Made by a program: the position numbers and the translations under genes
From: Escherichia coli
GTDB taxonomy: Bacteria > Pseudomonadota > Gammaproteobacteria > Enterobacterales > Enterobacteriaceae
Reading direction: 5' to 3' (one strand)
Assembly (NCBI RefSeq): GCF_016903815.1
Contig: NZ_CP069973.1
DNA: 64,000 bases
In this document: positions 1 through 21,472 of the stretch, piece after piece
Layout of the letters: each line of letters begins with the position of its first letter
Position numbering within the stretch: the stretch's first letter is position 1
Notes under the pieces: generated by a model
What the model saw: only the letters and a program-made list of their open reading frames with translations
Databases searched by the model: none
What the model was told of the DNA's origin: nothing

Positions 1-1087
1 CCCGTGAACTCAGCCTGTATGAATCACAGCTCTACAACTGGCGCAGTAAACAGCAAAATCAGCAGACGTCTTCTGAACGTGAACTGGAGATGTCTACCGA
101 GATTGCACGTCTCAAACGCCAGCTGGCAGAACGGGATGAAGAGCTGGCTATCCTCCAAAAGGCCGCGACATACTTCGCGAAGCGCCTGAAATGAAGTATG
201 TCTTTATTGAAAAACATCAGGCTGAGTTCAGCATCAAAGCAATGTGCCGCGTGCTCCGGGTGGCCCGCAGCGGCTGGTATACGTGGTGTCAGCGGCGGAC
301 AAGGATAAGCACGCGTCAGCAGTTCCGCCAACACTGCGACAGCGTTGTCCTCGCGGCTTTTACCCGGTCAAAACAGCGTTACGGTGCCCCACGCCTGACG
401 GATGAACTGCGTGCTCAGGGTTACCCCTTTAACGTAAAAACCGTGGCGGCAAGCCTGCGCCGTCAGGGACTGAGGGCAAAGGCCTCCCGGAAGTTCAGCC
501 CGGTCAGCTACCGCGCACACGGCCTGCCTGTGTCAGAAAATCTGTTGGAGCAGGATTTTTACGCCAGTGGCCCGAACCAGAAGTGGGCAGGAGACATCAC
601 GTACTTACGTACAGATGAAGGCTGGCTGTATCTGGCAGTGGTCATTGACCTGTGGTCACGTGCCGTTATTGGCTGGTCAATGTCGCCACGCATGACGGCG
701 CAACTGGCCTGCGATGCCCTGCAGATGGCGCTGTGGCGGCGTAAGAGGCCCCGGAACGTTATCGTTCACACGGACCGTGGAGGCCAGTACTGTTCAGCAG
801 ATTATCAGGCGCAACTGAAGCGGCATAATCTGCGTGGAAGTATGAGCGCAAAAGGTTGCTGCTACGATAATGCCTGCGTGGAAAGCTTCTTTCATTCGCT
901 GAAAGTGGAATGTATCCATGGAGAACACTTTATCAGCCGGGAAATAATGCGGGCAACGGTGTTTAATTATATCGAATGTGATTACAATCGGTGGCGGCGG
1001 CACAGTTGGTGTGGCGGCCTCAGTCCGGAACAATTTGAAAACCAGAACCTCGCTTATGCCTGTGTCCATATTACGTGGGTAGGATCA
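1..1087 (+). mobile_element. IS3: IS3 insertion sequence, 5' part cut by window edge; right inverted repeat ends ...CCATATTACGTGGGTAGGATCA at 1087
   Basis: orfA/orfB protein and DNA match recalled IS3 (InsE/InsF); terminal IR recognised at 1066-1087; window starts about 170 bp inside the element. Confidence 0.85.
3..194 (+). CDS. insE: IS3 OrfA (InsE) transposase N-terminal subunit, 5'-truncated by window start
   Basis: Frame 3 reads [63 protein letters not shown] then TGA at 192-194; overlaps orfB start as expected for the -1 frameshift arrangement. Confidence 0.8.
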
Positions 1088-1117
1088 GAACTCCATCCAG
1101 TCGTTTGGGGTTGCTAA
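191..1117 (+). CDS. insF: IS3 OrfB (InsF) DDE transposase; the recalled native stop position (1055-1057) reads TAT here, so the ORF runs 20 codons further, through the IS end into flanking DNA
   Basis: 308-aa [35 protein letters not shown]... identical over the recalled 288 aa of InsF apart from one K/Q difference; DDE integrase core ([18 protein letters not shown]). Confidence 0.85.
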
Positions 1118-1664
1118 TGACGTCCTGCATCCGCTTAATCTGGTCGGGCGTAGACATATAATCCCACAGGGTGAGCAGAACCTTTTTTGCGGCTACACTA
1201 TTTCCCTGATCTGATACTAATGCCATATAGCCCCATAAACTATCCCTCAGCCAGACACCATCATAGTGGGTTTCTGCCGCTGTTTTGTCATCTTCGAAAG
1301 TAGAAGCAAGAATAAATGTTCCCCAGGGTTTCTCCGTCAACGTTAACTTTCGTGTGTTTTCTGTTAATGTTAACAACCCTTGAATTTCGTCTTTGGTATA
1401 GTGGCTCTTTATTTCATTTTTTAATTTGGCTGAGTGAATCAAAAGACGATAATTAGGATACTTATCTGGATTTAACGATAAATAACTTTTATCTGTTGCT
1501 GCCCCCGTGGAATTAAGAATGTTAAATACAGATTCACTCGTCACTTCTGCCCCTGTCGCCTGGCATGTGCCGCACGAAAATATACCAGCGAGCAGAAGAG
1601 TTAATGCAGATTTCCCTTTCATAAAATATTCCATCAATCGTTTGTTAAAAGCGTAGATAACCAC
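1088..1664 (-). pseudogene. Putative secreted/lipoprotein gene (possibly the K-12 ygeQ-like gene of the glyU-adjacent island), C-terminally truncated by the IS3 insertion
   Basis: ORF MKGKSALTLLLAGIFSCGTCQATGAEV... with N-terminal signal peptide; reading frame runs straight into the IS3 right end at 1087, last residues are IS-derived; identity of the family not verified. Confidence 0.5.
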
Positions 1665-1859
1665 TTATTTAACAACTTGAAAATAAGGTGTTTTACCTGG
1701 GTTGTTACAAAAGGATTGCATTGCGTAAATGCTTTTTATTTACAACAAAATGGGGAAGTATTACGGCGATTGCGAAAAGTCTGAAGCGATTGAATTAAGA
1801 TAATATAGAAAATCGGATACAACAAAAATGGCAGGTTGATGAGGTGAAGATAAATTGAT

Positions 1860-1933
1860 TGGAGCGGGCGAAGGGAATCGAACCCTCGTATAGAGCTTGG
1901 GAAGCTCTCGTTCTACCATTGAACTACGCCCGC
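1860..1933 (-). tRNA. glyU: tRNA-Gly (anticodon CCC), glyU
   Basis: Reverse complement reads GCGGGCGTAGTTCAATGGTAGAACGAGAGCTTCCCAAGCTCTATACGAGGGTTCGATTCCCTTCGCCCGCTCCA: cloverleaf, CCC anticodon, encoded CCA. Confidence 0.93.
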
Positions 1934-2011
1934 TTCGAGATGCGTAAGGCATTATAAACCTTACGCTCTCCTTAGCAAGTGCCACGCTGCTGACTGCTGA
2001 TTAATTCGCCA

Positions 2012-2791
2012 TCAGCATTTTGGCTTGCTGCCCTGAGGCGGCAAGTAACGTAGCGGATCAATTGCCGTTGCACGGTAACGAATCTGGAAATGCAGGCGAA
2101 CAGATGCCGCATCCGTGCTCCCCATAGTGGCGATTTTTTGCCCAGTCTTCACGCTTTGCCCATTATTTACCAGCATCGTGTCATTATGGGCGTAAGCCGT
2201 AATGTAATCTTCACTGTGTTTAATCATGATGAGATTACCGTAGCCACGCAGCTGGTTGCCCACATACACCACCTTTCCTGCACCCGCGGCGTAAATAGGT
2301 GTACCCCGTGGAGCTGAGATATCAATCCCTTTATTGCCGCCATCTGCTGTCGAATACGGCATGATAACTTTCCCTGTCGTTGGCCATAACCAACAACGTT
2401 GCCCTACTGGCGGCCAGGATGATTTCGGTACCGCTGATGACGGTGTAACCGATGCGGTTTTGGTCGTTGATTTGGCGGTTGATTTACGTGTAATACTGCT
2501 ACTTTTCGCCCCACCCAGTTTTAGTTTCTGACCAACTTCAATGGTGTAAGGGGGGGAAATGCCGTTCAGTCGCGCCAGTTCTTTTACGCTGGTTCCCGTG
2601 GTGCGCGAAATACGATATAGCGTATCCCCCCGTTTCACGGTGTAAACGGAGCCGGAATACGTTCCTGTATCGGATGATTTGCTACCCGAACAGCCCGCCA
2701 AAAGCAGTCCAACCGATAACAACATCACGATACCCAGAGATTTTTTATTCAGGCGTCCCGCACTCAAAATCTTTCCTCGCTTAAAAAACAA
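2012..2791 (-). CDS. ygeR: LysM-domain M23-family peptidase lipoprotein YgeR (start codon uncertain; K-12 protein is a few residues shorter than the ORF)
   Basis: ORF with lipobox LLAGCSGS, LysM motif (YTVKRGDTLYRISRTTG), C-terminal M23 peptidase domain (GIDISAPRGTPIYAAGAGKVVYVG...HNDTMLV). Confidence 0.85.
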   Translation of the reverse strand: MFFKRGKILSAGRLNKKSLGIVMLLSVGLLLAGCSGSKSSDTGTYSGSVYTVKRGDTLYRISRTTGTSVKELARLNGISPPYTIEVGQKLKLGGAKSSSITRKSTAKSTTKTASVTPSSAVPKSSWPPVGQRCWLWPTTGKVIMPYSTADGGNKGIDISAPRGTPIYAAGAGKVVYVGNQLRGYGNLIMIKHSEDYITAYAHNDTMLVNNGQSVKTGQKIATMGSTDAASVRLHFQIRYRATAIDPLRYLPPQGSKPKC

Positions 2792-2893
2792 GACGCCTTA
2801 TCATAGCAGCCAGCCTCTTGATACCCAATCTCTTGCTTCTGGAAAAACGTGGTAATAGAGAAAGAGGTTAATTTCATTGGTAATGACTCCAAC

Positions 2894-3397
2894 TTATTGA
2901 TAGTGTTTTATGTTCAGATAATGCCCGATGACTTTGTCATGCAGCTCCACCGATTTTGAGAACGACAGCGACTTCCGTCCCAGCCGTGCCAGGTGCTGCC
3001 TCAGATTCAGGTTATGCCGCTCAATTCGCTGCGTATATCGCTTGCTGATTACGTGCAGCTTTCCCTTCAGGCGGGATTCATACAGCGGCCAGCCATCCGT
3101 CATCCATATCACCACGTCAAAGGGTGACAGCAGGCTCATAAGACGCCCCAGCGTCGCCATAGTGCGTTCACCGAATACGTGCGCAACAACCGTCTTCCGG
3201 AGCCTGTCATACGCGTAAAACAGCCAGCGCTGGCGCGATTTAGCCCCGACATAGCCCCACTGTCCGTCCATTTCCGCGCAGACGATGACGTCACTGCCCG
3301 GCTGTATGCGCGAGGTTACCGACTGCGGCCTGAGTTTTTTAAGTGACGTAAAATCGTGTTGAGGCCAACGCCCATAATGCGGGCTGTTGCCCGGCAT
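2894..3397 (-). CDS. insB: IS1 InsB (transposase C-terminal part, expressed as InsAB' by -1 frameshift)
   Basis: 167-aa [29 protein letters not shown]... matching IS1 InsB; A6C slippery motif TTAAAAAACTC on minus strand at 3331-3342. Confidence 0.9.
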
Positions 3398-3591
3398 CCA
3401 ACGCCATTCATGGCCATATCAATGATTTTCTGGTGCGTACCGGGTTGAGAAGCGGTGTAAGTGAACTGCAGTTGCCATGTTTTACGGCAGTGAGAGCAGA
3501 GATAGCGCTGATGTCCGGCGGTGCTTTTGCCGTTACGCACCACCCCGTCAGTAGCTGAACAGGAGGGACAGCTGATAGAAACAGAAGCCAC
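3316..3591 (-). CDS. insA: IS1 InsA (DNA-binding transposition inhibitor / transposase N-terminal part)
   Basis: 91-aa [45 protein letters not shown]... zinc-finger-like CxxC...CxxC, matches IS1 InsA. Confidence 0.9.
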
Positions 3592-3918
3592 TGGAGCACC
3601 TCAAAAACACCATCATACACTAAATCAGTAAGTTGGCAGCATCACCAAGAGCGCTATCCAGATAAAAACGATTAAATGCGAGAGTGCGACATGCCAGAAT
3701 GATTAATGAAATATCAATATGAGAAAATTACAGATAATTTCATTGTCAGGTTCTCTTCTCATTTTCGTGGTTTAACCACGATTATGTGATTGCCTCCGCA
3801 ATTCCTGTCTCTAACTCCCCTTCCTCGCAAAAACTGGCACTCCACGAGCATGTGTTTAGACAGTTTCATTAACGTAAACGGTTGCTTTTTACTCTGGCGG
3901 GCGAAAGGAGAAACACTG

Positions 3919-5367
3919 ATGAGCGCCATAGATTCCCAACTTCCCTCATCTTCTGGGCAAGACCGCCCAACTGATGAGGTTGACCGCATATTATCACCAG
4001 GAAAGCTGATCATACTCGGTCTGCAACACGTCCTTGTCATGTACGCAGGTGCAGTCGCTGTTCCTCTTATGATTGGTGACCGACTGGGCCTCTCAAAAGA
4101 AGCTATTGCGATGCTCATTAGCTCGGATCTCTTTTGCTGCGGGATCGTCACATTATTGCAATGTATCGGTATCGGCCGCTTTATGGGGATCCGCCTGCCG
4201 GTGATTATGTCGGTGACCTTTGCTGCTGTAACACCAATGATAGCCATTGGGATGAACCCGGATATCGGCCTGCTGGGGATATTTGGTGCCACTATCGCCG
4301 CGGGTTTTATCACCACATTATTAGCGCCACTTATCGGTCGCTTGATGCCTTTATTCCCGCCACTGGTTACCGGTGTGGTTATTACTTCTATCGGGCTTAG
4401 CATCATTCAGGTGGGCATTGACTGGGCCGCCGGAGGTAAAGGGAATCCGCAATATGGTAATCCCGTTTATTTAGGTATCTCCTTTGCCGTCTTAATTTTT
4501 ATCTTGCTCATTACTCGCTATGCGAAAGGATTTATGTCCAACGTCGCAGTATTACTGGGGATTGTATTTGGCTTTTTACTTTCGTGGATGATGAATGAAG
4601 TCAATTTATCCGGGCTACATGATGCTTCATGGTTTGCGATTGTTACGCCGATGTCGTTTGGTATGCCGATTTTCGATCCCGTTTCCATTCTGACCATGAC
4701 TGCCGTGTTAATCATCGTGTTTATCGAGTCGATGGGGATGTTCCTGGCACTGGGTGAAATAGTCGGTCGTAAACTCTCTTCGCACGATATTATTCGCGGG
4801 CTGCGTGTCGATGGCGTAGGGACAATGATAGGCGGCACGTTTAACAGCTTCCCCCACACGTCATTTTCACAAAACGTTGGCCTGGTTAGCGTGACGCGCG
4901 TTCATAGCCGCTGGGTGTGTATTTCTTCGGGAATTATATTAATCCTGTTTGGCATGGTGCCAAAAATGGCGGTGCTGGTAGCCTCCATTCCGCAATTTGT
5001 GCTGGGCGGCGCTGGTCTAGTGATGTTCGGCATGGTACTGGCGACAGGGATTCGAATTTTGTCGCGCTGTAACTACACCACCAACCGTTACAACCTCTAT
5101 ATTGTGGCGATCAGTCTCGGCGTTGGCATGACTCCGACGCTCTCTCACGATTTCTTTTCTAAGTTACCGGCCGTACTGCAACCGCTGCTACATAGCGGCA
5201 TTATGCTCGCAACCCTTAGCGCCGTTGTGCTGAACGTCTTCTTTAATGGCTATCAGCATCATGCTGACCTGGTGAAGGAATCCGTCTCTGATAAAGATTT
5301 AAAAGTCAGGACAGTACGTATGTGGCTTCTGATGCGCAAGCTGAAGAAAAATGAGCATGGAGAATAA
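3919..5367 (+). CDS. uacT: NCS2/NAT-family uric acid:H+ symporter UacT (YgfU); true start is the internal Met MSAIDSQLP, not the 525-aa ORF start
   Basis: 482-aa polytopic membrane protein with NAT signature region; matches recalled YgfU; extended ORF N-terminus is non-coding leader. Confidence 0.88.
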   Translation: MSAIDSQLPSSSGQDRPTDEVDRILSPGKLIILGLQHVLVMYAGAVAVPLMIGDRLGLSKEAIAMLISSDLFCCGIVTLLQCIGIGRFMGIRLPVIMSVTFAAVTPMIAIGMNPDIGLLGIFGATIAAGFITTLLAPLIGRLMPLFPPLVTGVVITSIGLSIIQVGIDWAAGGKGNPQYGNPVYLGISFAVLIFILLITRYAKGFMSNVAVLLGIVFGFLLSWMMNEVNLSGLHDASWFAIVTPMSFGMPIFDPVSILTMTAVLIIVFIESMGMFLALGEIVGRKLSSHDIIRGLRVDGVGTMIGGTFNSFPHTSFSQNVGLVSVTRVHSRWVCISSGIILILFGMVPKMAVLVASIPQFVLGGAGLVMFGMVLATGIRILSRCNYTTNRYNLYIVAISLGVGMTPTLSHDFFSKLPAVLQPLLHSGIMLATLSAVVLNVFFNGYQHHADLVKESVSDKDLKVRTVRMWLLMRKLKKNEHGE

Positions 5368-5368
5368 T

Positions 5369-5494
5369 ATGAATTTTTTAATGCGCGCTATATTCAGTCT
5401 GCTGTTGCTTTTTACTCTCTCTATTCCTGTCATTTCTGACTGTGTTGCAATGGCCATTGAAAGTCGCTTCAAATATATGATGCTACTTTTTTAA
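5369..5494 (+). CDS. yqfG: Small hydrophobic protein YqfG (41 aa: MNFLMRAIFSLLLLFTLSIPVISDCVAMAIESRFKYMMLLF)
   Basis: ATG 2 nt after uacT stop with GGAG 7 nt upstream; single predicted TM helix; corresponds to small K-12 ORF recalled between ygfU and idi; below ORF-track size cutoff. Confidence 0.5.
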   Translation: MNFLMRAIFSLLLLFTLSIPVISDCVAMAIESRFKYMMLLF

Positions 5495-5616
5495 ATGGTT
5501 TTTACCTGTCGGCATCCGCTCAAAACGGGCGGTTGTCGATAAACGCTCACTTGGTTAATCATTTCACTCTTCAATTATCTATAATGATGAGTGATCAGAA
5601 TTACATGTGAGAAATT

Positions 5617-6165
5617 ATGCAAACGGAACACGTCATTTTATTGAATGCACAGGGAGTTCCCACGGGTACGCTGGAAAAGTATGCCGCACACACGGCAGAC
5701 ACCCGCTTACATCTCGCGTTCTCCAGTTGGCTGTTTAATGCCAAAGGACAATTATTAGTTACCCGCCGCGCACTGAGCAAAAAAGCGTGGCCTGGCGTGT
5801 GGACTAACTCGGTTTGTGGGCACCCACAACTGGGAGAAAGCAACGAAGACGCGGTGATCCGCCGTTGCCGTTATGAGCTTGGCGTGGAAATTACGCCTCC
5901 TGAATCTATCTATCCTGACTTTCGCTATCGCGCCACCGATCCGAATGGCATTGTGGAAAATGAAGTGTGTCCGGTATTTGCCGCACGCACCACCAGTGCG
6001 TTACAGATCAACGATGATGAAGTGATGGATTATCAATGGTGTGATTTAGCAGATGTATTACACGGTATTGATGCCACACCGTGGGCGTTCAGTCCGTGGA
6101 TGGTGATGCAGGCAGCCAATAGTGAAGCAAGAAAATTGTTGTCTACTTTCGCGCAGCACAATTAA
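5617..6165 (+). CDS. idi: Isopentenyl-diphosphate delta-isomerase (type 1, Nudix fold)
   Basis: 182-aa [44 protein letters not shown]... matches E. coli Idi. Confidence 0.93.
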
Positions 6166-6192
6166 AAAACCCCGACATTTGCCGGGGTTGTG
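6164..6192. terminator. Bidirectional intrinsic terminator between convergent idi and lysS
   Basis: AAAAAACCCCGACATTTGCCGGGGTTGTG: A-run, GC hairpin CCCCGAC/GCCGGGG, T-rich tail. Confidence 0.6.
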
Positions 6193-6207
6193 AGCATAAC
6201 GTAATGC

Positions 6208-7725
6208 TTATTTTACCGGACGCATCGCCGGGAACAGAATAACGTCGCGGATGGTATGGCTGTTGGTGAACAGCATTACCATACGGTCGATGCCAATCCC
6301 CAGACCTGCTGTCGGCGGTAAGCCATGTTCCAGTGCGGTAACGTAATCTTCATCGTAGAACATCGCTTCGTCGTCACCTGCGTCTTTCGCGGCAACCTGA
6401 TCCAGGAAGCGTTGCGCCTGATCTTCCGCGTCATTCAGCTCGCTAAAGCCGTTACCGATTTCACGACCACCGATGAAGAACTCAAAGCGGTCTGTGATTT
6501 CCGGGTTAATGTCGTTACGACGCGCCAGCGGAGAAACTTCTGCCGGATATTCAGTAATGAAGGTCGGCTGAATCAGATGTGCTTCTGCCACTTCTTCGAA
6601 GATCTCGGTAACGATACGGCCCAGACCCCAGCTCTTCTCAACGTGGATACCGATAGATTCAGCAATCGCTTTCGCAGAGTCGAAGTTATCCAGATCCGCC
6701 ATGTCGGTTTCCGGGCGATATTTCTTGATCGCTTCACGCATGGTCAGTTTTTCGAACGGTTTACCGAAGTCCAGCGTCACGTCGCCGTAGGTCACTTCCG
6801 TCTTACCGAGAATATCCTGTGCCAGAGTACGGAACAGCGATTCGGTCAGCTCGATCAGATCTTTGTAATCTGCGTAAGCCATGTAGAGTTCCATCATGGT
6901 GAACTCTGGGTTATGACGTACGGAGATACCTTCGTTACGGAAGTTACGGTTGATTTCGAATACACGCTCGAAGCCACCGACCACCAGACGCTTGAGGTAC
7001 AGTTCCGGCGCGATACGCAGGTACATGTCGAGATCCAGCGCGTTATGGTGGGTGATAAACGGACGCGCAGCGGCACCGCCAGGGATCACCTGCATCATCG
7101 GCGTTTCAACTTCCATAAAGCCGCGGTTCACCATGAACTGGCGAATACCAGAGAGGATCTGCGAGCGCACTTTAAAGGTGTTACGGGATTCATCGTTAGA
7201 GATGAGATCCAGATAACGCTGACGATAGCGCGCTTCCTGATCCTGCAAGCCGTGGAATTTATCCGGCAGCGGACGCAGTGCTTTGGTCAGCAGACGCAGC
7301 TCGGTACAGTGGATAGACAGTTCGCCGGTTTTGGTTTTGAACAGTTTACCTTTCGCGCCGAGGATGTCACCGAGGTCCCATTTTTTGAACTGCTCGTTGT
7401 AAACGCCTTCCGGCAGATCGTCACGGGCAACGTACAGCTGAATGCGGCCACCCACATCCTGCAGGGTAACGAAAGACGCTTTACCCATAATACGGCGGGT
7501 CATCATGCGGCCAGCAACGGCGACTTCGATGTTCAGCGCTTCCAGTTCTTCGTTCTCTTTACCGTCGAATTCTGCGTGCAATTGGTCAGAGGTATGATCG
7601 CGACGGAAATCGTTCGGGAAGGCAATCCCCTGCTCGCGCAGGTTCGCCAGCTTCTCACGACGCGTTTTCAGTTCATTGTTAAGATCGACTACCGCGTCAG
7701 CGCCCTGTGCGTGTTGTTCAGACAT
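6208..7725 (-). CDS. lysS: Lysyl-tRNA synthetase (constitutive, class II)
   Basis: 505-aa [36 protein letters not shown]... class II aaRS motifs; 9 nt downstream of prfB as in the prfB-lysS operon. Confidence 0.95.
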
Positions 7726-7734
7726 GTTGGTTCC

Positions 7735-8833
7735 TCATAACCCTGCTTTCAAACTTGCTTCGATAAATTGATCCAGGCTGCCGTCCAGCACGGCCTGCGT
7801 GTTGCGGGTTTCTACCCCGGTACGCAGATCTTTAATGCGGGAGTCATCAAGGACATAAGAACGAATCTGGCTGCCCCAGCCGATGTCGGATTTGTTATCT
7901 TCCATCGCCTGTTTCTCGGCATTTTTCTTCTGCATCTCCAGTTCATAAAGCTTCGCTTTCATCTGCTTCATGGCCTGGTCTTTGTTCTTGTGCTGGGAAC
8001 GGTCGTTCTGGCATTGGGTCACGATCCCGGTTGGGATGTGGGTAATACGCACCGCAGATTCGGTACGGTTAACGTGCTGACCGCCCGCGCCGGACGCGCG
8101 ATAAACGTCAATGCGCAGATCCGCCGGGTTGATTTCGATATCAATATCATCATCAACTTCCGGGTAAACAAACGCAGAGCTGAACGATGTGTGGCGACGA
8201 CCGCCGGAGTCAAACGGGCTTTTACGCACCAGGCGGTGAACGCCAGTTTCTGTACGCAGCCAGCCGTAAGCGTAATCGCCGGAGATTTTGATCGTCACGG
8301 ATTTAATACCCGCCACTTCACCTTCCGACTCTTCGATGATTTCAGTTTTGAAACCACGCGATTCTGCCCAGCGCAGATACATACGCTCAAGCATGCTCGC
8401 CCAGTCCTGTGCTTCCGTACCGCCAGACCCCGCCTGAATATCGAGGTAGCAGTCGGCGCTGTCATATTCGCCAGAGAACATACGGCGGAACTCAAGCTGC
8501 GCCAGTTTTTCTTCCAGGGCGTCGAGTTCAGCAACGGCTTCGTTAAAGGTTTCTTCGTCGTCAGCTTCTACAGCCAGTTCCAGCAGACCAGAAACATCTT
8601 CCAGCCCCTGTTTCATTTGGTCGAGAGTGTCGACAACGGCTTCGAGGGAGGAACGCTCTTTACCCAGCGCCTGTGCGCGTTCGGGTTCGTTCCAGACATC
8701 CGGCTGTTCCAGCTCGGCGTTTACTTCTTCCAGACGCTCTTTCTTGGCGTCGTAGTCAAAGATACCCCCTAAGAACGTCGGAGCGTTCCGTGAGGTCCTG
8801 AATGCGATTATTTACCGGATTAATTTCAAACAT
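7735..8833 (-). CDS. prfB: Peptide chain release factor 2, expressed via programmed +1 ribosomal frameshift at in-frame UGA codon 26
   Basis: ATG at 8833 gives [25 protein letters not shown] then TGA (8758-8756); +1 frame continues [16 protein letters not shown]... to stop at 7735 (25+340=365 aa); GGQ and SPF motifs present. Confidence 0.93.
8755..8773 (-). promoter_or_regulatory. prfB autoregulatory frameshift window: internal Shine-Dalgarno-like AGGGGG, slippery CUU UGA C
   Basis: Minus-strand sequence CTTAGGGGGTATCTTTGAC read directly; matches the canonical RF2 recoding site. Confidence 0.9.
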
Positions 8834-8923
8834 GGTCTGATTTCTTTTATTGAGCTAGTCAAAATGCGGTGATAAGAGCGGGATTGTACCCAATCCACGC
8901 TCTTTTTTATAGAGAAGATGACG

Positions 8924-10657
8924 CTAAATTGGCCAGATATTGTCGATGATAATTTGCAGGCTGCGGTTGCCGCGAAACTCGTTGATATCGAGCTTGTAAG
9001 CCAGTTGCACTTCGCGCACGCCGTTATCCGGCCAGAGGGCGGTATCGACATTAAAAGCAATACCATCCAGCAGTGGACCGCCGCCGACCGGTTCGACCAT
9101 CACCTTCAAATGACGTTCGCCCACCAGCCGCTGTTGCAGCAGACGGAAATGACCGTCAAACAGCGGCTCCGGGAACATCTGCCCCCACGGGCCAGCATCG
9201 CGCAGCAACTGCGCCACTTCCATGGTCATTTCGGCCGGGCTTAACGGACCGTCTGACACCACTTCGCCTTGCAATAGCGAAGGGTCCAGCCACTCTGTAA
9301 CCAGTTCGCCAAACCGTTGTTGAAAGAGTTCGAATTTATCCTCTTCCAGCGACAAACCCGCCGCCATCGCATGACCGCCAAACTTCAGTATCATGCCAGG
9401 GTAGAGTGTGTCTAATCGCTCCAGTGCATCACGCATATGCAGCCCCTGAATGGAGCGACCTGAACCTTTCAGCGTACCATCACCTGCTGGCGCAAAGGCG
9501 ATAACCGGACGGTGAAAACGCTCTTTGATGCGCGAAGCCAGAATACCGACAACGCCCTGATGCCATTCGGGGTGATACATTGCCAGCCCGCCGGGTAGCG
9601 TGTCGCGACTTCGCTCCAGTTTCTCGCACAGGGTCAGGGCTTCAACTTGCATTCCTTGTTCGATCTCTTTTCGCGTCTGGTTTAGCGCATCGAGTTCATT
9701 TGCCAGCACGCGCGCTTCGCCGATGTTGTCGCACAGCAAGAGCGCCACACCGACGGACATATCGTCCAGTCGTCCGGCAGCATTGAGACGTGGCCCCAGC
9801 GCAAAACCTAAATCGCTGGCGGCGAGTTTTTGTGCATCACGGTTTGCCACTTCCAGCAGCGCTTTAATCCCTGGACGGCACTTTCCGGCACGGATGCGAC
9901 TCATCCCCTGCCAGGTCAGAATGCGATTATTAGCGTCCAGCGGCACGACGTCCGCCACTGTTCCCAGCGCGACCAGATCCAGCAGTTCTGCCAGGTTAGG
10001 AATTGCGATGCCACGCTCATAAAACCAGCCCTGATCGCGCAAAAAGGTGCGCAGCGCCAGCATCAGATAAAACGCCACACCCACGCCTGCCAGTGATTTC
10101 GACGGGAAATTACAGTCGCGCAAGTTAGGGTTAATGATCGCTTCCGCTGCGGGTAATGTTTCGCCCGGCAAATGGTGATCGGTAACAATAACCGGAATGC
10201 CCAACGAGCGAGCGTGTTCAACGCCCGCATGGGAGGAAATACCGTTATCCACCGTGACAATTAACTGCGCGCCACGGGCATGGGCCTGATCGACTACTTC
10301 CGGGCTTAAGCCGTAACCGTCTTCGAAACGGTTTGGTACCAGATAGTCGATATTGCTGCAACCAAGCGAGCGCATCGCCAGCACGCTTAGAGCCGTGCTG
10401 GTCGCGCCGTCGGCATCAAAATCACCAACCACAATAATCCGCGTTCCTTCGCGAAAAGCGTTGTAAAGGATCTCAACGGCCTTTTCGACGCCGCTCAGTT
10501 GCTGCCAGGGCAGCATACCTTTAACACTGCGTTCCAGTTCTTGCGCACTGCGTACTCCCCGGCTGGCGTATAAACGGCGCAGCAAGGGAGGCAATTCAGC
10601 GGGCAAGTCTGCCGTTTCATCGACTTCACGGCGACGAAGTTGTATCTGTTGTTTCAC
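8924..10657 (-). CDS. recJ: Single-stranded-DNA-specific 5'-3' exonuclease RecJ (DHH family)
   Basis: 577-aa ORF; DHH motif (VVGDFDADGATS, VTDHH), matches RecJ. Confidence 0.95.
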   Translation of the reverse strand: MKQQIQLRRREVDETADLPAELPPLLRRLYASRGVRSAQELERSVKGMLPWQQLSGVEKAVEILYNAFREGTRIIVVGDFDADGATSTALSVLAMRSLGCSNIDYLVPNRFEDGYGLSPEVVDQAHARGAQLIVTVDNGISSHAGVEHARSLGIPVIVTDHHLPGETLPAAEAIINPNLRDCNFPSKSLAGVGVAFYLMLALRTFLRDQGWFYERGIAIPNLAELLDLVALGTVADVVPLDANNRILTWQGMSRIRAGKCRPGIKALLEVANRDAQKLAASDLGFALGPRLNAAGRLDDMSVGVALLLCDNIGEARVLANELDALNQTRKEIEQGMQVEALTLCEKLERSRDTLPGGLAMYHPEWHQGVVGILASRIKERFHRPVIAFAPAGDGTLKGSGRSIQGLHMRDALERLDTLYPGMILKFGGHAMAAGLSLEEDKFELFQQRFGELVTEWLDPSLLQGEVVSDGPLSPAEMTMEVAQLLRDAGPWGQMFPEPLFDGHFRLLQQRLVGERHLKVMVEPVGGGPLLDGIAFNVDTALWPDNGVREVQLAYKLDINEFRGNRSLQIIIDNIWPI

Positions 10658-10662
10658 GCGAA

Positions 10663-11373
10663 TTATTTACCGCTGGTCATTTTTTGGTGTTCGTCGAGGA
10701 ATTCTTTCATCTCTTTCGGCGGCTGGTAACCCGGGACAAGTGTGCCATTGCTCAGCACAACTGCCGGAGTACCGCTAACGCCAAGCTGGACGCCAAGTGC
10801 GTAATGGTCGGCAATATCCACGTCGCAACTGGCTGGTGCGACGCTTTTACCTGCAATCACATCATCAAACGCTTTGTTTTTATCTTTCGCACACCAGATA
10901 GCTTTCATTTCTTTCTCTGCATCGCTGTCCAGCCCCTGGCGCGGGAAGGCAAGATAACGCACGGTGATCCCCAGCGCGTTATAGTCTGCCATTTGCTCAT
11001 GCAGTTTGTGGCAGTAACCACAGGTAATATCAGTAAACACGGTGATGACGTGTTTTTCCTGCGGTGCTTTATAAACGATCATCTCTTTTTCAAGCGCATT
11101 CAACTGCTTTAACAGCATCTTATTGGTGACATTGACCGGAGCCGTGCCGCTAACGTCATACATTGGCCCCTGAATGATATGTTTACCGTCATCGGTGATG
11201 TACAACACACCGCTGTTAGTCAGCACAGTCTTCATGCCAGCCACGGGTGCTGGCTGAATATCGCTGCTTTTAATGCCCATTTTGGCTAACGTTTGTTGAA
11301 TTGCCGCGTCATCCGCCTGAACAAAGCCTGAAAACGCCGCCAACAACGTAAATAACATAAAACCTTTCTTCAT
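10663..11373 (-). CDS. dsbC: Periplasmic thiol:disulfide interchange protein DsbC (start at MKKGFMLF rather than the longer ORF)
   Basis: Signal peptide, thioredoxin CGYC active site (ITCGYCHKLH), matches DsbC; 6 nt upstream of recJ. Confidence 0.93.
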   Translation of the reverse strand: MKKGFMLFTLLAAFSGFVQADDAAIQQTLAKMGIKSSDIQPAPVAGMKTVLTNSGVLYITDDGKHIIQGPMYDVSGTAPVNVTNKMLLKQLNALEKEMIVYKAPQEKHVITVFTDITCGYCHKLHEQMADYNALGITVRYLAFPRQGLDSDAEKEMKAIWCAKDKNKAFDDVIAGKSVAPASCDVDIADHYALGVQLGVSGTPAVVLSNGTLVPGYQPPKEMKEFLDEHQKMTSGK

Positions 11374-11396
11374 AAATCGTCCTATTTTCTCAGCAA

Positions 11397-12293
11397 TCAA
11401 GCCCGCGGGTGATGCTGTTGATGAAGTTGACGCAAACGCTCGGTGGCGACATGCGTATAAATTTGGGTGGTGGATAGATCGCTATGACCCAACAACATCT
11501 GCACCACACGTAAATCCGCACCATGATTTAATAAATGAGTGGCAAAAGCGTGACGCAACACATGCGGTGACAGCTTTTCGCTGTCGATACCCGCCAGCAC
11601 GGCATAATGTTTAATGCGGTGCCAGAAGGTCTGTCGCGTCATCTGCTGCGCACGCTGGCTGGGGAACAACACATCAATAGAGACACCGTTCAACAACCAC
11701 GGTCGCCCATGCTCGAGATACGTTTCCAGCCAGTAAACCGCCTCTTCACCTAACGGCACCAGGCGCTCTTTGTTGCCTTTACCAATGACCCGCACTACGC
11801 CCTGACGCAGGCTGATATCACTCATTGTCAGTCCGACCAGTTCAGAGACACGCAGCCCGGTAGCATACAACACTTCAAGCATGGCTTTATCGCGTAGCTC
11901 CAGTGGCTGATCAATTAATGGTGCCTGTAATAAACGTTCGACCTGCGCTTCGCTTAAATCTTTTGGCAAACGCTGTGGCAATTTCGGTGAAGCGAGATGC
12001 GCACTGGGATCGTCTTCACGAAACTTTTCGCGATAAAGATACTGGAACAATCGGCGCACTGCACTCAGCAAACGTGCCGAGCTGGTGGCTTTATACCCGC
12101 CCTCCAGCCTTTCTGCCAGTAATGCCTGCAAATCGTCACTTTGCGCCGTCGCCAGCGTCAACCCGCGGTGATGCAACCACTCCACCATCATTGACAGATC
12201 GCGACGGTAAGCGTTCAACGTATTTTCAGCCAGATTTTTTTCCAGCCACAGAGCATCAAGAAACTGCTCGATGCGTGCCAGATCCTGTTTCAC
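11397..12293 (-). CDS. xerD: Site-specific tyrosine recombinase XerD
   Basis: 298-aa ORF; tyrosine recombinase catalytic residues (R...HxxR...Y: LRHAFATHLLNHGADLRVVQMLLGHSDLSTTQIYTHV). Confidence 0.95.
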   Translation of the reverse strand: MKQDLARIEQFLDALWLEKNLAENTLNAYRRDLSMMVEWLHHRGLTLATAQSDDLQALLAERLEGGYKATSSARLLSAVRRLFQYLYREKFREDDPSAHLASPKLPQRLPKDLSEAQVERLLQAPLIDQPLELRDKAMLEVLYATGLRVSELVGLTMSDISLRQGVVRVIGKGNKERLVPLGEEAVYWLETYLEHGRPWLLNGVSIDVLFPSQRAQQMTRQTFWHRIKHYAVLAGIDSEKLSPHVLRHAFATHLLNHGADLRVVQMLLGHSDLSTTQIYTHVATERLRQLHQQHHPRA

Positions 12294-12404
12294 TTGCGCC
12301 CCTTATGGTCACTCATTTGATCCATTATGCCTTATTGTGCCGTGACTAAAGCGATTCTGATACACTAGCCGCAAAAGCCACAGCAGAATCGAGAAGCTTA
12401 CGTT

Positions 12405-12926
12405 ATGAATATGGGTCTTTTTTACGGTTCCAGCACCTGTTACACCGAAATGGCGGCAGAAAAAATCCGCGATATTATCGGCCCAGAACTGGTGACCTTA
12501 CATAACCTCAAGGACGACTCCCCGAAATTAATGGAGCAGTACGATGTGCTCATTCTGGGTATCCCGACCTGGGATTTTGGTGAAATCCAGGAAGACTGGG
12601 AAGCCGTCTGGGATCAGCTCGACGACCTGAACCTCGAAGGTAAAATTGTTGCGCTGTATGGGCTTGGCGATCAACTGGGATACGGCGAGTGGTTCCTCGA
12701 TGCGCTCGGTATGCTGCATGACAAACTCTCGACCAAAGGCGTGAAGTTCGTCGGCTACTGGCCAACGGAAGGATATGAATTTACCAGCCCGAAACCGGTG
12801 ATTGCTGACGGGCAACTGTTCGTGGGGCTGGCGCTGGACGAAACTAACCAGTATGACCTTAGCGACGAGCGTATTCAGAGCTGGTGTGAACAAATCCTCA
12901 ACGAAATGGCAGAGCATTACGCCTGA
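12405..12926 (+). CDS. fldB: Flavodoxin 2
   Basis: 173-aa [26 protein letters not shown]... long-chain flavodoxin FMN-binding N-terminus. Confidence 0.93.
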
Positions 12927-12959
12927 TGTCACTGACGGCTTAGCGCATATGCTTTGCCG

Positions 12960-13632
<673 letters not shown>

Positions 13633-13862
13633 TCACGAAAATCCAGTACCCCGCTATTGTAACGTGTTTTTCGACTTCTTTTACGGGAATATCAGTAAAC
13701 ACAATCGCGATCGCGAAATTAATTCACAACAATTCAAGGGCTTCATTTTTTTGGAAGTCGCCTCGCAGAAGGCACAGATCGCGTAGTGAAAGCACTTGCA
13801 TTGCCTCATAGCTCTTTTACCATTAGTCATTAATACGCCGTTAAGCAACTCAGGACTCTATT

Positions 13863-14843
13863 ATGGCTTTTACACCTTTTCCTCCCCGTCAGCCTACGGC
13901 TTCTGCCCGTTTACCGCTGACACTGATGACGCTTGATGACTGGGCGCTTGCCACCATTACTGGCGCGGACAGCGAAAAATATATGCAGGGTCAGGTGACA
14001 GCAGACGTCAGCCAGATGACAGAAGATCAGCACCTGCTGGCCGCCCATTGCGACGCCAAAGGTAAAATGTGGAGCAATTTACGTCTGTTCCGCGACGGCG
14101 ATGGCTTTGCGTGGATTGAACGGCGCAGCGTGCGTGAACCGCAGCTGACTGAACTGAAAAAATATGCGGTATTCTCTAAAGTGACCATCGCGCCAGACGA
14201 CGAGCGTGTGCTGCTTGGTGTTGCCGGTTTTCAGGCGCGCGCCGCGCTGGCAAACCTCTTTAGTGTATTACCTTCGAAGGAAAAGCAGGTTATCAGAGAA
14301 GATGCGACTACCCTGCTATGGTTTGAACACCCGGCAGAACGTTTCCTGATCGTAACCGATGAAGCTACTGCCAATATGCTGACCGATAAACTGCGCGGTG
14401 AAGCGGAACTGAACAATAGCCAACAGTGGCTGGCATTAAACATTGAAGCGGGTTTCCCGGTGATTGATGCCGCCAACAGCGGGCAGTTTATTCCACAGGC
14501 GACCAATCTCCAGGCGCTGGGCGGTATCAGCTTTAAGAAAGGCTGCTATACCGGACAAGAGATGGTGGCGCGAGCAAAATTCCGTGGTGCCAACAAACGC
14601 GCGCTCTGGTTGCTGACAGGTAGTGCCAGCCGACTGCCGGAAGCTGGTGAAGATTTAGAGCTGAAAATGGGCGAGAACTGGCGTCGCACCGGTACGGTGC
14701 TGGCTGCGGTAAAACTGGAAGATGGTCAGGTCGTGGTACAGGTCGTCATGAATAACGATATGGAACCGGACAGCATCTTCCGCGTGCGTGACGATGCGAA
14801 TACACTGCATATCGAGCCGCTGCCGTATTCGCTCGAAGAGTAA
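13863..14843 (+). CDS. ygfZ: tRNA-modifying / Fe-S cluster repair folate-binding protein YgfZ
   Basis: 326-aa ORF with GcvT-like fold and conserved KGCYTGQE motif. Confidence 0.9.
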
Positions 14844-18598: not shown

Positions 18599-21472
18599 TT
18601 ACTGGTATTCGCTAATCGGTACGCAGGAGCAGAACAGGTTACGGTCGCCGTAAACATCATCCAGACGTTTCACTGTCGGCCAGTATTTGTCTGCCACACC
18701 TGCCGGGAATACCGCAACTTCACGGCTGTACGGATGCGCCCACTCGGCGACCAGTTCGCTCTGAATGTGCGGCGCGTTCACCAGCGGGTTATCTTCCAGC
18801 GGCCAGACACCGGCTTTCACCTGGTCAATTTCTGCGCGGATAGCCAGCATCGCGTCGATAAAGCGATCCAGTTCCACTTTGCTTTCAGATTCAGTCGGTT
18901 CAACCATCAGCGTACCCGCCACCGGGAACGACATCGTCGGCGCGTGGAAACCGTAGTCGATCAGGCGCTTGGCAATATCCAGCTCGCTGATGCCGGTTTC
19001 TTCTTTCAGCGGGCGAATATCGAGAATACATTCGTGCGCCACGCGACCGTCGCGACCGGTATACAGCACCGGGAAGGCATCCTGCAGGCGGCTGGCAATA
19101 TAGTTGGCGCTGAGGATTGCCACCTGGCTTGCTTTTTTCAGCCCTTCTGCGCCCATCATGCGGATGTACATCCAGCTGATTGGCAGGATAGAGGCGCTAC
19201 CGAACGGTGCCGCAGAAACCGCGCCCTGACGGGTTAACATGCCTTCGATGTGCACCACGCTATGACCCGGTACAAACGGTGCCAAATGCGCTTTCACGCC
19301 GATCGGTCCCATACCCGGACCACCACCGCCGTGCGGAATGCAGAAAGTTTTATGTAGGTTAAGGTGTGAAACGTCCGCACCAATAAAGCCCGGCGAGGTG
19401 ATGCCAACCTGGGCGTTCATGTTCGCGCCATCAAGGTAAACCTGACCGCCGAACTGATGCACGACTTCACACACTTCACGGATCGTTTCTTCATACACGC
19501 CGTGGGTAGAAGGATAAGTCACCATGATACAGGAGAGGTTATCGCCCGCCTGTTCCGCTTTCGCGCGCAGATCAGTCAGATCGATGTTGCCGTTTTTATC
19601 ACACGCCACAACCACCACCTGCATTCCTGCCATATGTGCAGAAGCGGGGTTAGTTCCGTGCGCAGAAGCCGGGATCAGGCAGATATCGCGATGCCCTTCG
19701 TTGCGGCTTTCATGATAATGACGAATCGCCAGCAGGCCCGCGTATTCGCCCTGTGCGCCAGAGTTCGGCTGCATACAAACGGCGTCGTAACCGGTCAGTT
19801 TCACCAGCCAGTCAGCCAGCTGCGCAATCATCTGCTGATAACCTTCGGCCTGCTCCGGCGGGCAGAACGGGTGCAGTTCGGCAAATTCCGGCCAGGTGAT
19901 TGGGATCATCTCGGCGGCGGCGTTCAGTTTCATGGTGCAGGAACCCAGCGGGATCATCGCCTGATTCAGCGCCAGATCTTTACGCTCCAGCGAGTGCATA
20001 TAGCGCATCATTTCGGTTTCGCTGTGGTAGCGATTAAACACCGGATGGGTGAGGATTTCGTCGTCGCGCAGCATCGCAGGTTGAATAGAGCGGCTGTCGT
20101 GAGCCACGTCTTTGTCCAGCGTGTCGATGTCCAGGCCGTGGTTATCCCCCAGCAGTACGCTGAAAAGCTGCATCACGTTTTCGCGCGTGGTGGTTTCATC
20201 AAGGGTGATCCCAACCGCGTTCAGGATATCGCTACGCAGGTTGATTTCAGCCGCTTCGGCACGCGTCAGTACGCCCGCCTTGTCGGCCACTTCCACACAC
20301 AGAGTGTCGAAATAGTGCGCATGGCGCAGCTTCAGACCTTTTTGTTGCAGGCCTGCCGCCAGGATATCGGTCAGACGGTGAATGCGGTTAGCGATACGTT
20401 TCAGGCCAACCGGGCCGTGATAAACGGCATACAGGCTGGCGATGTTTGCCAGCAGTACCTGGGAAGTACAAATGTTGGAGTTCGCTTTCTCACGACGAAT
20501 ATGTTGCTCGCGAGTCTGCATCGCCATGCGCAGAGCGGTGTTGCCAGCTGCATCTTTCGATACACCGATAATACGGCCCGGCATTGAGCGTTTGTATTCA
20601 TCTTTCGCCGCAAAGAATGCCGCGTGTGGGCCACCGTAGCCCATCGGCACGCCGAAGCGTTGCGCCGAACCAAAAACAATATCCGCGCCCTGTTTACCCG
20701 GCGCAGTTAACAGCACCAGCGCCATAATATCGGCGGCAACGCTGACCACAATTTTGCGTGATTTCAGTTCGCTAATAAGCGCAGTGTAGTCGTGAATTTC
20801 ACCGGTAGTGCCTACCTGCTGTAACAGCACGCCGAAGACGTCCTGATGGTCGAGCACTTTTTGCGCGTCATCGACAATCACTTCAAAACCAAAGGTTTCG
20901 GCACGAGTACGGACCACATCCAGCGTTTGCGGATGCACATCGGAAGCCACGAAGAAGCGGTTGGCATTTTTCAGTTTGCTGACGCGTTTCGCCATCGCCA
21001 TTGCTTCGGCGGCAGCGGTGGCCTCGTCCAGAAGAGAAGCAGAGGCCATATCCAGTCCAGTCAAATCCAGCGTTACCTGCTGGAAGTTGAGCAGTGCTTC
21101 AAGGCGGCCCTGGGAGACTTCAGGTTGATACGGAGTGTACGCGGTATACCAGCCCGGATTTTCCAGCATGTTACGCAGGATAACCGGCGGTAGCTGCACG
21201 GCGGTGTAACCCATGCCGATGTAAGACGTGAAGCGTTTATTGCGACTGGCAATAGCCTTGAGTTCTGCCAGTGCGGCGTATTCGGTCGCCGGTGCGCCAA
21301 CCTGCGGTGGTGTCGCAAGCTGAATATCTTTCGGCACAATCTGGCCGGTCAGCGCGTTTAACGATTGTGCACCAACGGCATTCAGCATTTCTTGCTGTTG
21401 CGCGGCGTCCGGTCCGATATGGCGTTCAATAAAAGCGCCGCTGTTTTCAAGCTGGCTTAACGTCTGTGTCAT
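18599..21472 (-). CDS. gcvP: Glycine dehydrogenase (decarboxylating), glycine cleavage P protein
   Basis: 957-aa ORF matching GcvP; PLP-lysine region; operon with gcvT-gcvH. Confidence 0.96.

Follow-up and report, generated by a model that had tools for sequence, protein, structure and literature searches.

The window, the 64-kb stretch of Escherichia coli DNA analysed here, opens inside a copy of IS3. Bases 1..1087 (plus strand) correspond to positions 172-1258 of the element, which is 1258 bp long and has its first 171 bp to the left of the window. The right end reads ...ACGTGGGTAGGATCA, with 1087 as its last base, and the sequence in which bases 1-1087 terminate, ...CCTGTGTCCATATTACGTGGGTAGGATCA, occurs a single time within the 64 kb; a further IS3 copy for comparison was sought across the window and none was found. 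The complete element was read from E. coli strain 7/2 (NZ_CP023820.1), to which window positions 1-9933 are 100% identical. There it occupies L001 7830-9087, measures 1258 bp and begins with TGATCTTACC; alignment of its left and right inverted repeats (IRL and IRR) gives imperfect terminal repeats with a TG start and a CA end, the 39-bp IRR lying at 1049..1087 (plus strand). The 3' part of orfA (insE) covers 1..194 (plus strand), from a start codon at L001 7895, left of the window, and its translation ends in ...AKRLK*. It overlaps orfB (insF), which starts at 191 and, with its read-through extension, spans 191..1117 (plus strand), 308 codons versus the usual 288. The two frames are joined by a -1 programmed frameshift at the motif A AAA G, 157..161 (plus strand; context CCAAAAGG, IS3 positions 326-333), which we take, from established knowledge of IS3, to be the slippery site, and PGAP labels the same point 'programmed frameshift'. 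OrfB contains the Pfam domains rve (DDE integrase core, E = 6e-28) and HTH_21, and matches the NCBIfam equivalog transpos_IS3 with 338.8 bits, the cut-off being 160. The element is thus IS3 (IS3 family, IS3 group), and its missing stop is a derived defect that leaves membership unaffected. With K-12 IS3 (insE/insF, e.g. IS3A, b0298-b0299), the prototype of the family, it has in common the 1258-bp length, the ~39-bp TG...CA repeats, the orfA/orfB overlap at A AAA G and the DDE/rve domain in orfB. Only four internal differences separate it from K-12 IS3A (IS3 positions 165, 200, 1214 and 1228), and only two from the copy that REL606 has at this site (positions 165 and 1228). Unlike IS3A, it has TAT in place of the TAG stop (adding 20 codons), Q instead of K at OrfB residue 285, the OrfA substitution A34T, found in the lineage studied (IS3 position 165, outside the window), and no flanking target duplication at this locus.

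The lost stop lies at 1055..1057 (plus strand), codon 289 of orfB, where a G to T transversion at IS3 nucleotide 1228 has turned TAG into TAT; TAG stands at the same codon in K-12 IS3A, REL606, MB7671 and p140_MLI109. The first-pass annotation had recognized both this change and a frame that leaves the element antisense to the truncated gene beyond it, and the reference orfB does end at the TAG equivalent to 1055-1057 rather than at 1117. The annotation was mistaken, however, in extending the frame 20 codons beyond the inverted repeat: the 20 extra codons are counted from the normal stop, 11 of them falling inside the IRR and only 9 outside the element. This read-out part, at 1088..1117 (plus strand), comprises the 9 sense codons and a TAA at 1115-1117, antisense to the ygeQ remnant (ygeQ'). 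Ribosomes translating OrfB, or the frameshifted OrfAB, would accordingly read on for 11 codons through the IRR and 9 into the flank as far as this TAA, and we infer that a 20-residue tail would be added. The mutated base is also IRR position 31 from the tip, at which the wild-type IRR matches the IRL, so that recognition of this end may be weakened. PGAP calls the transposase a pseudogene 'missing C-terminus'. A promoter and terminator scan of 900-2100 returned counts matching those of shuffled controls and is uninformative on read-out transcription. According to the review of Mahillon and Chandler, a transposase stop placed within a terminal inverted repeat or farther out is said to be a general feature of insertion sequences, and the wild-type IS3 orfB stop already falls within the IRR. 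Unlike elements that carry such a stop by design, the present copy owes its layout to a rare mutation (<1% of copies), and its frame closes in flanking DNA.

To the right of IS3 lies a truncated ygeQ, a GH15-family putative lipoprotein gene, at 1071..1622 (minus strand), composed of 178 native codons (1088-1622), 5 IS-encoded codons and a stop. The minus-strand open reading frame extends over 1071-1664, with the K-12 start at 1622; the protein begins MKGKSALTLLLAGIFSC and has 183 residues, the final five of which, LILPT, are encoded by the element. Its N-terminus fits what we take to be the PROSITE PS51257 pattern, with K2, K4, a hydrophobic core and G-I-F-S-C17, and the K-12 annotation of the protein is 'putative lipoprotein'. 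The earlier description of an IS3 end lying inside the frame of a signal-peptide protein, a putative lipoprotein, that is 3'-truncated and finishes in IS-derived residues is supported, with 178 of 536 codons left. The family of the 1088-1664 fragment, which had remained to be identified, is ygeQ: 177 of the 178 native residues agree with WP_000676900.1 of strain 042 (536 aa), and that homologue, far from ending at this position, extends 358 codons farther. Intact ygeQ in strain 042 (1611 bp, 536 aa) is annotated as glycoside hydrolase family 15, and residues 94-401 of its product match PF00723 weakly, at 25.4 bits where the cut-off is 22; the family assignment comes only from this intact homologue. 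The 183-aa product has no match in Pfam or NCBIfam, the GH15 domain being absent, and because of this we regard ygeQ' as a truncated pseudogene. PGAP describes it as 'protein YgeQ, incomplete, missing C-terminus'.

Beyond the ygeQ remnant, ARAGORN and Rfam (RF00005, 71.6 bits) place a tRNA-Gly(CCC) gene at 1860..1933 (minus strand), which matches K-12 glyU by position; nothing besides this tRNA was returned by the Rfam scan of 1-4000. It is followed by an intact actS (ygeR), coding for a LysM/M23 amidase activator (2012..2767, minus strand; Pfam, PGAP), and by a 768-bp IS1 at 2879..3646 (minus strand). The ends and flanks of this IS1, GTTAATTTCATT and AAGAGCGCTATC, have no duplication, and the flanks map to positions 1003 and 32096 of K-12 L006. 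The element is thus the scar of a second deletion, in which 31,092 bp of K-12, xdhA through ygfT, are gone; it joins the upstream regions of actS and uacT, so that the urate permease gene uacT (ygfU; 3919..5367, plus strand; Pfam Xan_ur_permease, PGAP) now stands next to actS. IS3 and IS1 do lie within 3 kb of tRNA-Gly, as first read from the sequence. A separate arrangement is seen in strain ET846, which has the junction with TAT, yet a different, IS1B-bounded deletion that has brought yqfH up against the 3' end of xdhA.

How IS3 came to lie against ygeQ is answered by its flanks. The left end abuts nucleotide 551 of yqeH and the right end nucleotide 535 of ygeQ, and these flanks map to yqeH and ygeQ in both K-12 and 042. 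The DNA missing between the two junction points amounts to 22,163 bp in 042, where the interval contains a full type III secretion gene set, and to 10,207 bp in K-12, where it holds an already degraded ETT2 plus an IS2. The type III secretion apparatus genes found between yqeH and ygeQ in 042 (epr, epa and eiv) are all absent here. The triplets bordering the element (CTA to its left, GAA to its right) form no target duplication, the distal part of ygeQ is not across the element, and the left flank is yqeH; therefore IS3 is the scar of an ETT2 deletion, and replaces the whole island at glyU. The remaining yqeH encodes a 189-aa product with an IS-encoded tail. The first-pass annotation had instead taken IS3 to interrupt the gene, that is, to have inserted itself into a complete ygeQ and cut the gene in two. 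Such a reading draws on the position of the IS3 end within the ygeQ frame and on the IS-encoded tail that the frame has gained, but it would leave a 3-bp, occasionally 4-bp, duplication at the element's ends, of the kind seen in MB7671, our positive control, where an independent simple IS3 insertion in yqeH is bordered by a 3-4 bp duplication. It would also leave distal ygeQ, not yqeH, to the left of IS3, and these two genes lie 22 kb apart in the ETT2-intact strain, all of which is missing; the flank mapping refutes this reading, and we consider a simple interruption most improbable.

In its intact form ETT2 lies beside glyU and measures ~29.9 kb, and it has been widely degraded by deletions and IS elements (PMC11068852), with isoforms common to several lineages (Ren et al. 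2004, as summarised in PMC11068852). The present allele shares island, site and mode of decay with these attrition isoforms at glyU (PMC11068852). It differs from those summarised there in being a near-total loss, in which one IS3 joins all that is left, 551 nt from the start of yqeH and 535 nt from the start of ygeQ; the review mentions neither ygeQ nor an IS3 junction (PMC11068852). The earlier suggestion of an ETT2 remnant at this site holds in that glyU is the attachment site of the island, but nothing of ETT2 remains here beyond the two stubs, yqeH' and ygeQ'. Probably, either two IS3 copies in direct orientation recombined to give the deletion, or IS3 mediated an adjacent rearrangement. 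IS3 transposes through a circular copy-out intermediate, and for this reason we favour recombination between two directly oriented copies as the most likely route. A precursor with a simple IS3 insertion was found at neither the ygeQ site nor the yqeH site among 5,426 complete E. coli genomes (0 in each case). MB7671, the one apparent hit, was considered as a yqeH-site precursor and rejected, its insertion being an independent one 487 bp upstream in yqeH.

The junction itself is shared by ~190 of the 5,426 complete E. coli genomes, among them REL606, BL21(DE3) and C41/C43. Since the query spanned the stop position and the junction together, these genomes could be divided by allele: 34 are 100% identical (TAT), and ~156 match at 98.8%, with one mismatch and an intact annotated transposase (TAG). 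Most junction genomes, REL606 included, retain TAG; therefore the junction came first and the stop was lost later, the loss being, as far as these alleles tell, a later point mutation in a sub-lineage of 34 genomes. Comparison with E. coli B (REL606, BL21(DE3)) makes the relationship explicit. Its yqeH'-IS3-ygeQ' arrangement has both junctions base-identical and ETT2 absent, the truncated YqeH product is identical (WP_001389254.1), and the yqeF-actS haplotype is 99.9% identical; E. coli B differs in keeping TAG, with the transposase annotated as intact, in having no IS1 next to actS (REL606 lacks it at the actS-side site) and in the presence of the xdh-ygf cluster. More precisely, identity to REL606 across the yqeF-actS block is 99.92-99.94%; the block is less similar to 042 and K-12, and divergence from REL606 rises to ~1.6% immediately to the left of the block, around L001 3930. 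We infer from these comparisons that the junction formed once, its distribution fitting vertical descent, homologous recombination or both. The haplotype pattern fits a single origin, after which the deletion allele was possibly transferred via homologous recombination.

The TAT allele is rare. Of the 4,172 E. coli records in which an IS3 right end is present, each represented by its best place, 35 have it, namely 34 chromosomes and one plasmid, pE1246_1. In PLSDB, where 918 plasmids have such an end, pE1246_1 is again the 1 carrier. Among metagenome contigs the TAT right end had 0 exact matches, whereas the TAG control was matched at least 120 times. On the chromosome the IS3 right end is single in ~20 of the 34 TAT genomes and present in two or more copies in the other 14; in the former group the comparison with sister copies of IS3 that the first-pass annotation proposed has no second copy to draw on. 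The plasmid copy is defective, with positions 407-600 missing. The pE1246_1 site is occupied by IS3 in three other plasmids too, which match with a single mismatch and in which the transposase is annotated as intact; p140_MLI109, the one examined among these same-site plasmids, has TAG. As TAG is found at the same sites elsewhere, TAT arose in place, by mutation or conversion, and not by insertion; no TAT element at a new insertion site came to light among the E. coli records (best place of each), plasmids and metagenome contigs searched. Single-nucleotide differences help to choose between mutation and conversion for the plasmid. At IS3 positions 27/165/200/1214/1228 the window copy reads G/A/G/C/T, REL606 G/G/G/C/G, ET846 G/G/A/C/T, pE1246_1 A/G/A/C/T, p140_MLI109 A/G/G/A/G, and K-12 IS3A and MB7671 both G/G/A/A/G. 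The pE1246_1 copy is thus a mosaic, its left end resembling p140_MLI109 and the remainder, from position 200 on, being of the ET846 type. Recombination or gene conversion between IS3 copies would account for this plasmid better than transposition of a stop-less element.

A recurrent, independent G to T mutation in the plasmid, as opposed to a patch copied between IS3 copies, deserves some weight, given that the allele is defined by one base and that the E-1246 chromosome is not among the TAT records. Yet pE1246_1 and p140_MLI109 differ jointly at positions 200, 1214 and 1228, all three ET846-like in the former, whereas position 27 is plasmid-like; conversion is the more economical because one tract replaces three separate changes, and we hold recurrent mutation to be unlikely, though it keeps a real share of plausibility. 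Gene conversion also enters a more speculative proposal, in which the locus-specific tails and altered IRR of the stop-less allele could cut activity in cis, lock the element and stabilise the ETT2-deletion junction, the apparent spread from chromosome to a pAA-type plasmid being by gene conversion and not by transposition. To this proposal we attach very little probability. No more credible would be a functional isoform, a stop-less IS3 that takes its C-terminus from flanking DNA and transposes actively. The occurrence of TAT at two loci, the chromosomal ygeQ junction and pE1246_1, together with intact catalytic domains and an intact frameshift site, could be read in this way. Against it, same-site copies of other strains have TAG at both loci, the plasmid copy is internally deleted and its polymorphisms are a mosaic of same-site plasmid and ET846-type copies, 34 of the 35 TAT records share a single locus, the metagenome counts go entirely to TAG, and IS3 has its sole right end at the junction allele in ~20 TAT genomes; we judge this reading highly unlikely. 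That TAT is a sequencing or assembly error, conceivable for a difference of one base, can practically be dismissed, as 34 complete chromosomes, each assembled independently and together representing several countries and hosts, agree on the base; it is likewise seen against the divergent ET846 background and on one plasmid.

Overall, we consider it very probable that the locus is an ETT2-deletion scar whose junction had a single origin, with a later loss of the transposase stop and neutral decay thereafter. Neutral decay of a trapped IS copy, with no sign of functional innovation, is the most likely fate of the element. Part of this was already known, in that both genes carry the pseudogene label in RefSeq and the E. 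coli B reference genomes contain this very junction; current understanding of IS3 and ETT2 is unchallenged, and the value of the finding is mostly one of annotation. There is also a lesson of method, namely that both flanks and the target duplication should be checked before an IS beside a truncated gene is called a simple insertion. For strain typing, TAT serves as a clean marker of its lineage, present in 34 of 5,426 genomes. What the locus records is ordinary genome reduction through IS elements, after which the trapped IS copy has decayed by point mutation: a 1.8-kb glyU-actS remnant is bracketed by two IS-bounded deletions, which together removed ~53 kb. One took away the ETT2 secretion island, the other the purine and selenium-molybdoenzyme genes of the xdh-ygf cluster.

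The stub of yqeH, encoding an ETT2 LuxR-type regulator, lies directly left of the window, at 7279-7848 of the strain 7/2 locus (NZ_CP023820.1), which is identical to the window over window positions 1-9933 and supplies the left end of IS3. The gene is cut at codon 184 and its reading frame ends within the IS3 IRL sequence. REL606, ET846, and the window lineage all encode the same resulting product, annotated as a "hypothetical protein" of 189 aa (WP_001389254.1). MB7671 keeps ETT2 and carries an independent simple insertion of IS3 (3787-5044 of its locus). This copy lies at nucleotide 64 of yqeH, has the same orientation, and is flanked by a duplication of 3-4 bp; yqeH has therefore been hit by IS3 repeatedly. 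ETT2-intact strains also possess a GhoT/OrtT-family small toxin gene beside ygeQ (in strain 042 at 19281-19460 of the locus, between ygeQ and the T3SS genes), which the window lineage lost along with the island.

The IS3 of the window lineage bears a second nonsynonymous change, OrfA A34T (IS3 position 165; strain 7/2 locus 7994), 7 bp ahead of the window start, that is missing from the IS3 of REL606, ET846, K-12, and both plasmid copies (pE1246_1 and p140_MLI109). The pE1246_1 copy (1980-3043 of its locus), adjoining the agg5A AAF/V fimbrial genes, is defective: it has lost positions 407-600. It, too, reads TAT at the orfB stop. Its SNPs form a mosaic of the same-site p140_MLI109 copy and an ET846-type copy and, like the IS3 of the window, it lacks a target duplication, being flanked by GAT and ATA.

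Divergence from REL606 drops abruptly, from ~1.6% to ~0.06%, at ~3930 of the strain 7/2 locus, between kduI and yqeF; this switch is the left edge of the shared deletion-bearing haplotype, in which ET846 takes part only from ~5820 rightwards.

Beside actS, the window carries an IS1 (2879-3646; flanks 2600-2878 and 3647-3950) without the 9-bp target duplication; REL606 has no such element there. The window's IS1 replaces 31,092 bp of K-12, xdhA through ygfT, comprising 21 genes of purine catabolism and selenium-dependent molybdoenzymes; actS now adjoins uacT via the IS1. The actS/IS1 junction (2800-2960) finds a 100% one-piece match in YJ6, ETEC6, and UID2309220033, none of them on the list of TAT carriers. 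UID2309220007 has 20.8 kb between its IS3 and IS1 junctions, where other genomes have 1.76 kb.

ET846 (NZ_CP100895.1) matches the window lineage in its actS allele and in carrying the IS3 junction with TAT. Its own deletion (at 11138-14241 of its locus), however, is bounded by IS1B, joins the xdhA 3' end to yqfH, and has removed uacT as well. Because this deletion differs from that of the window, IS1 has brought about the loss of the xdh-ygf cluster on at least two occasions.
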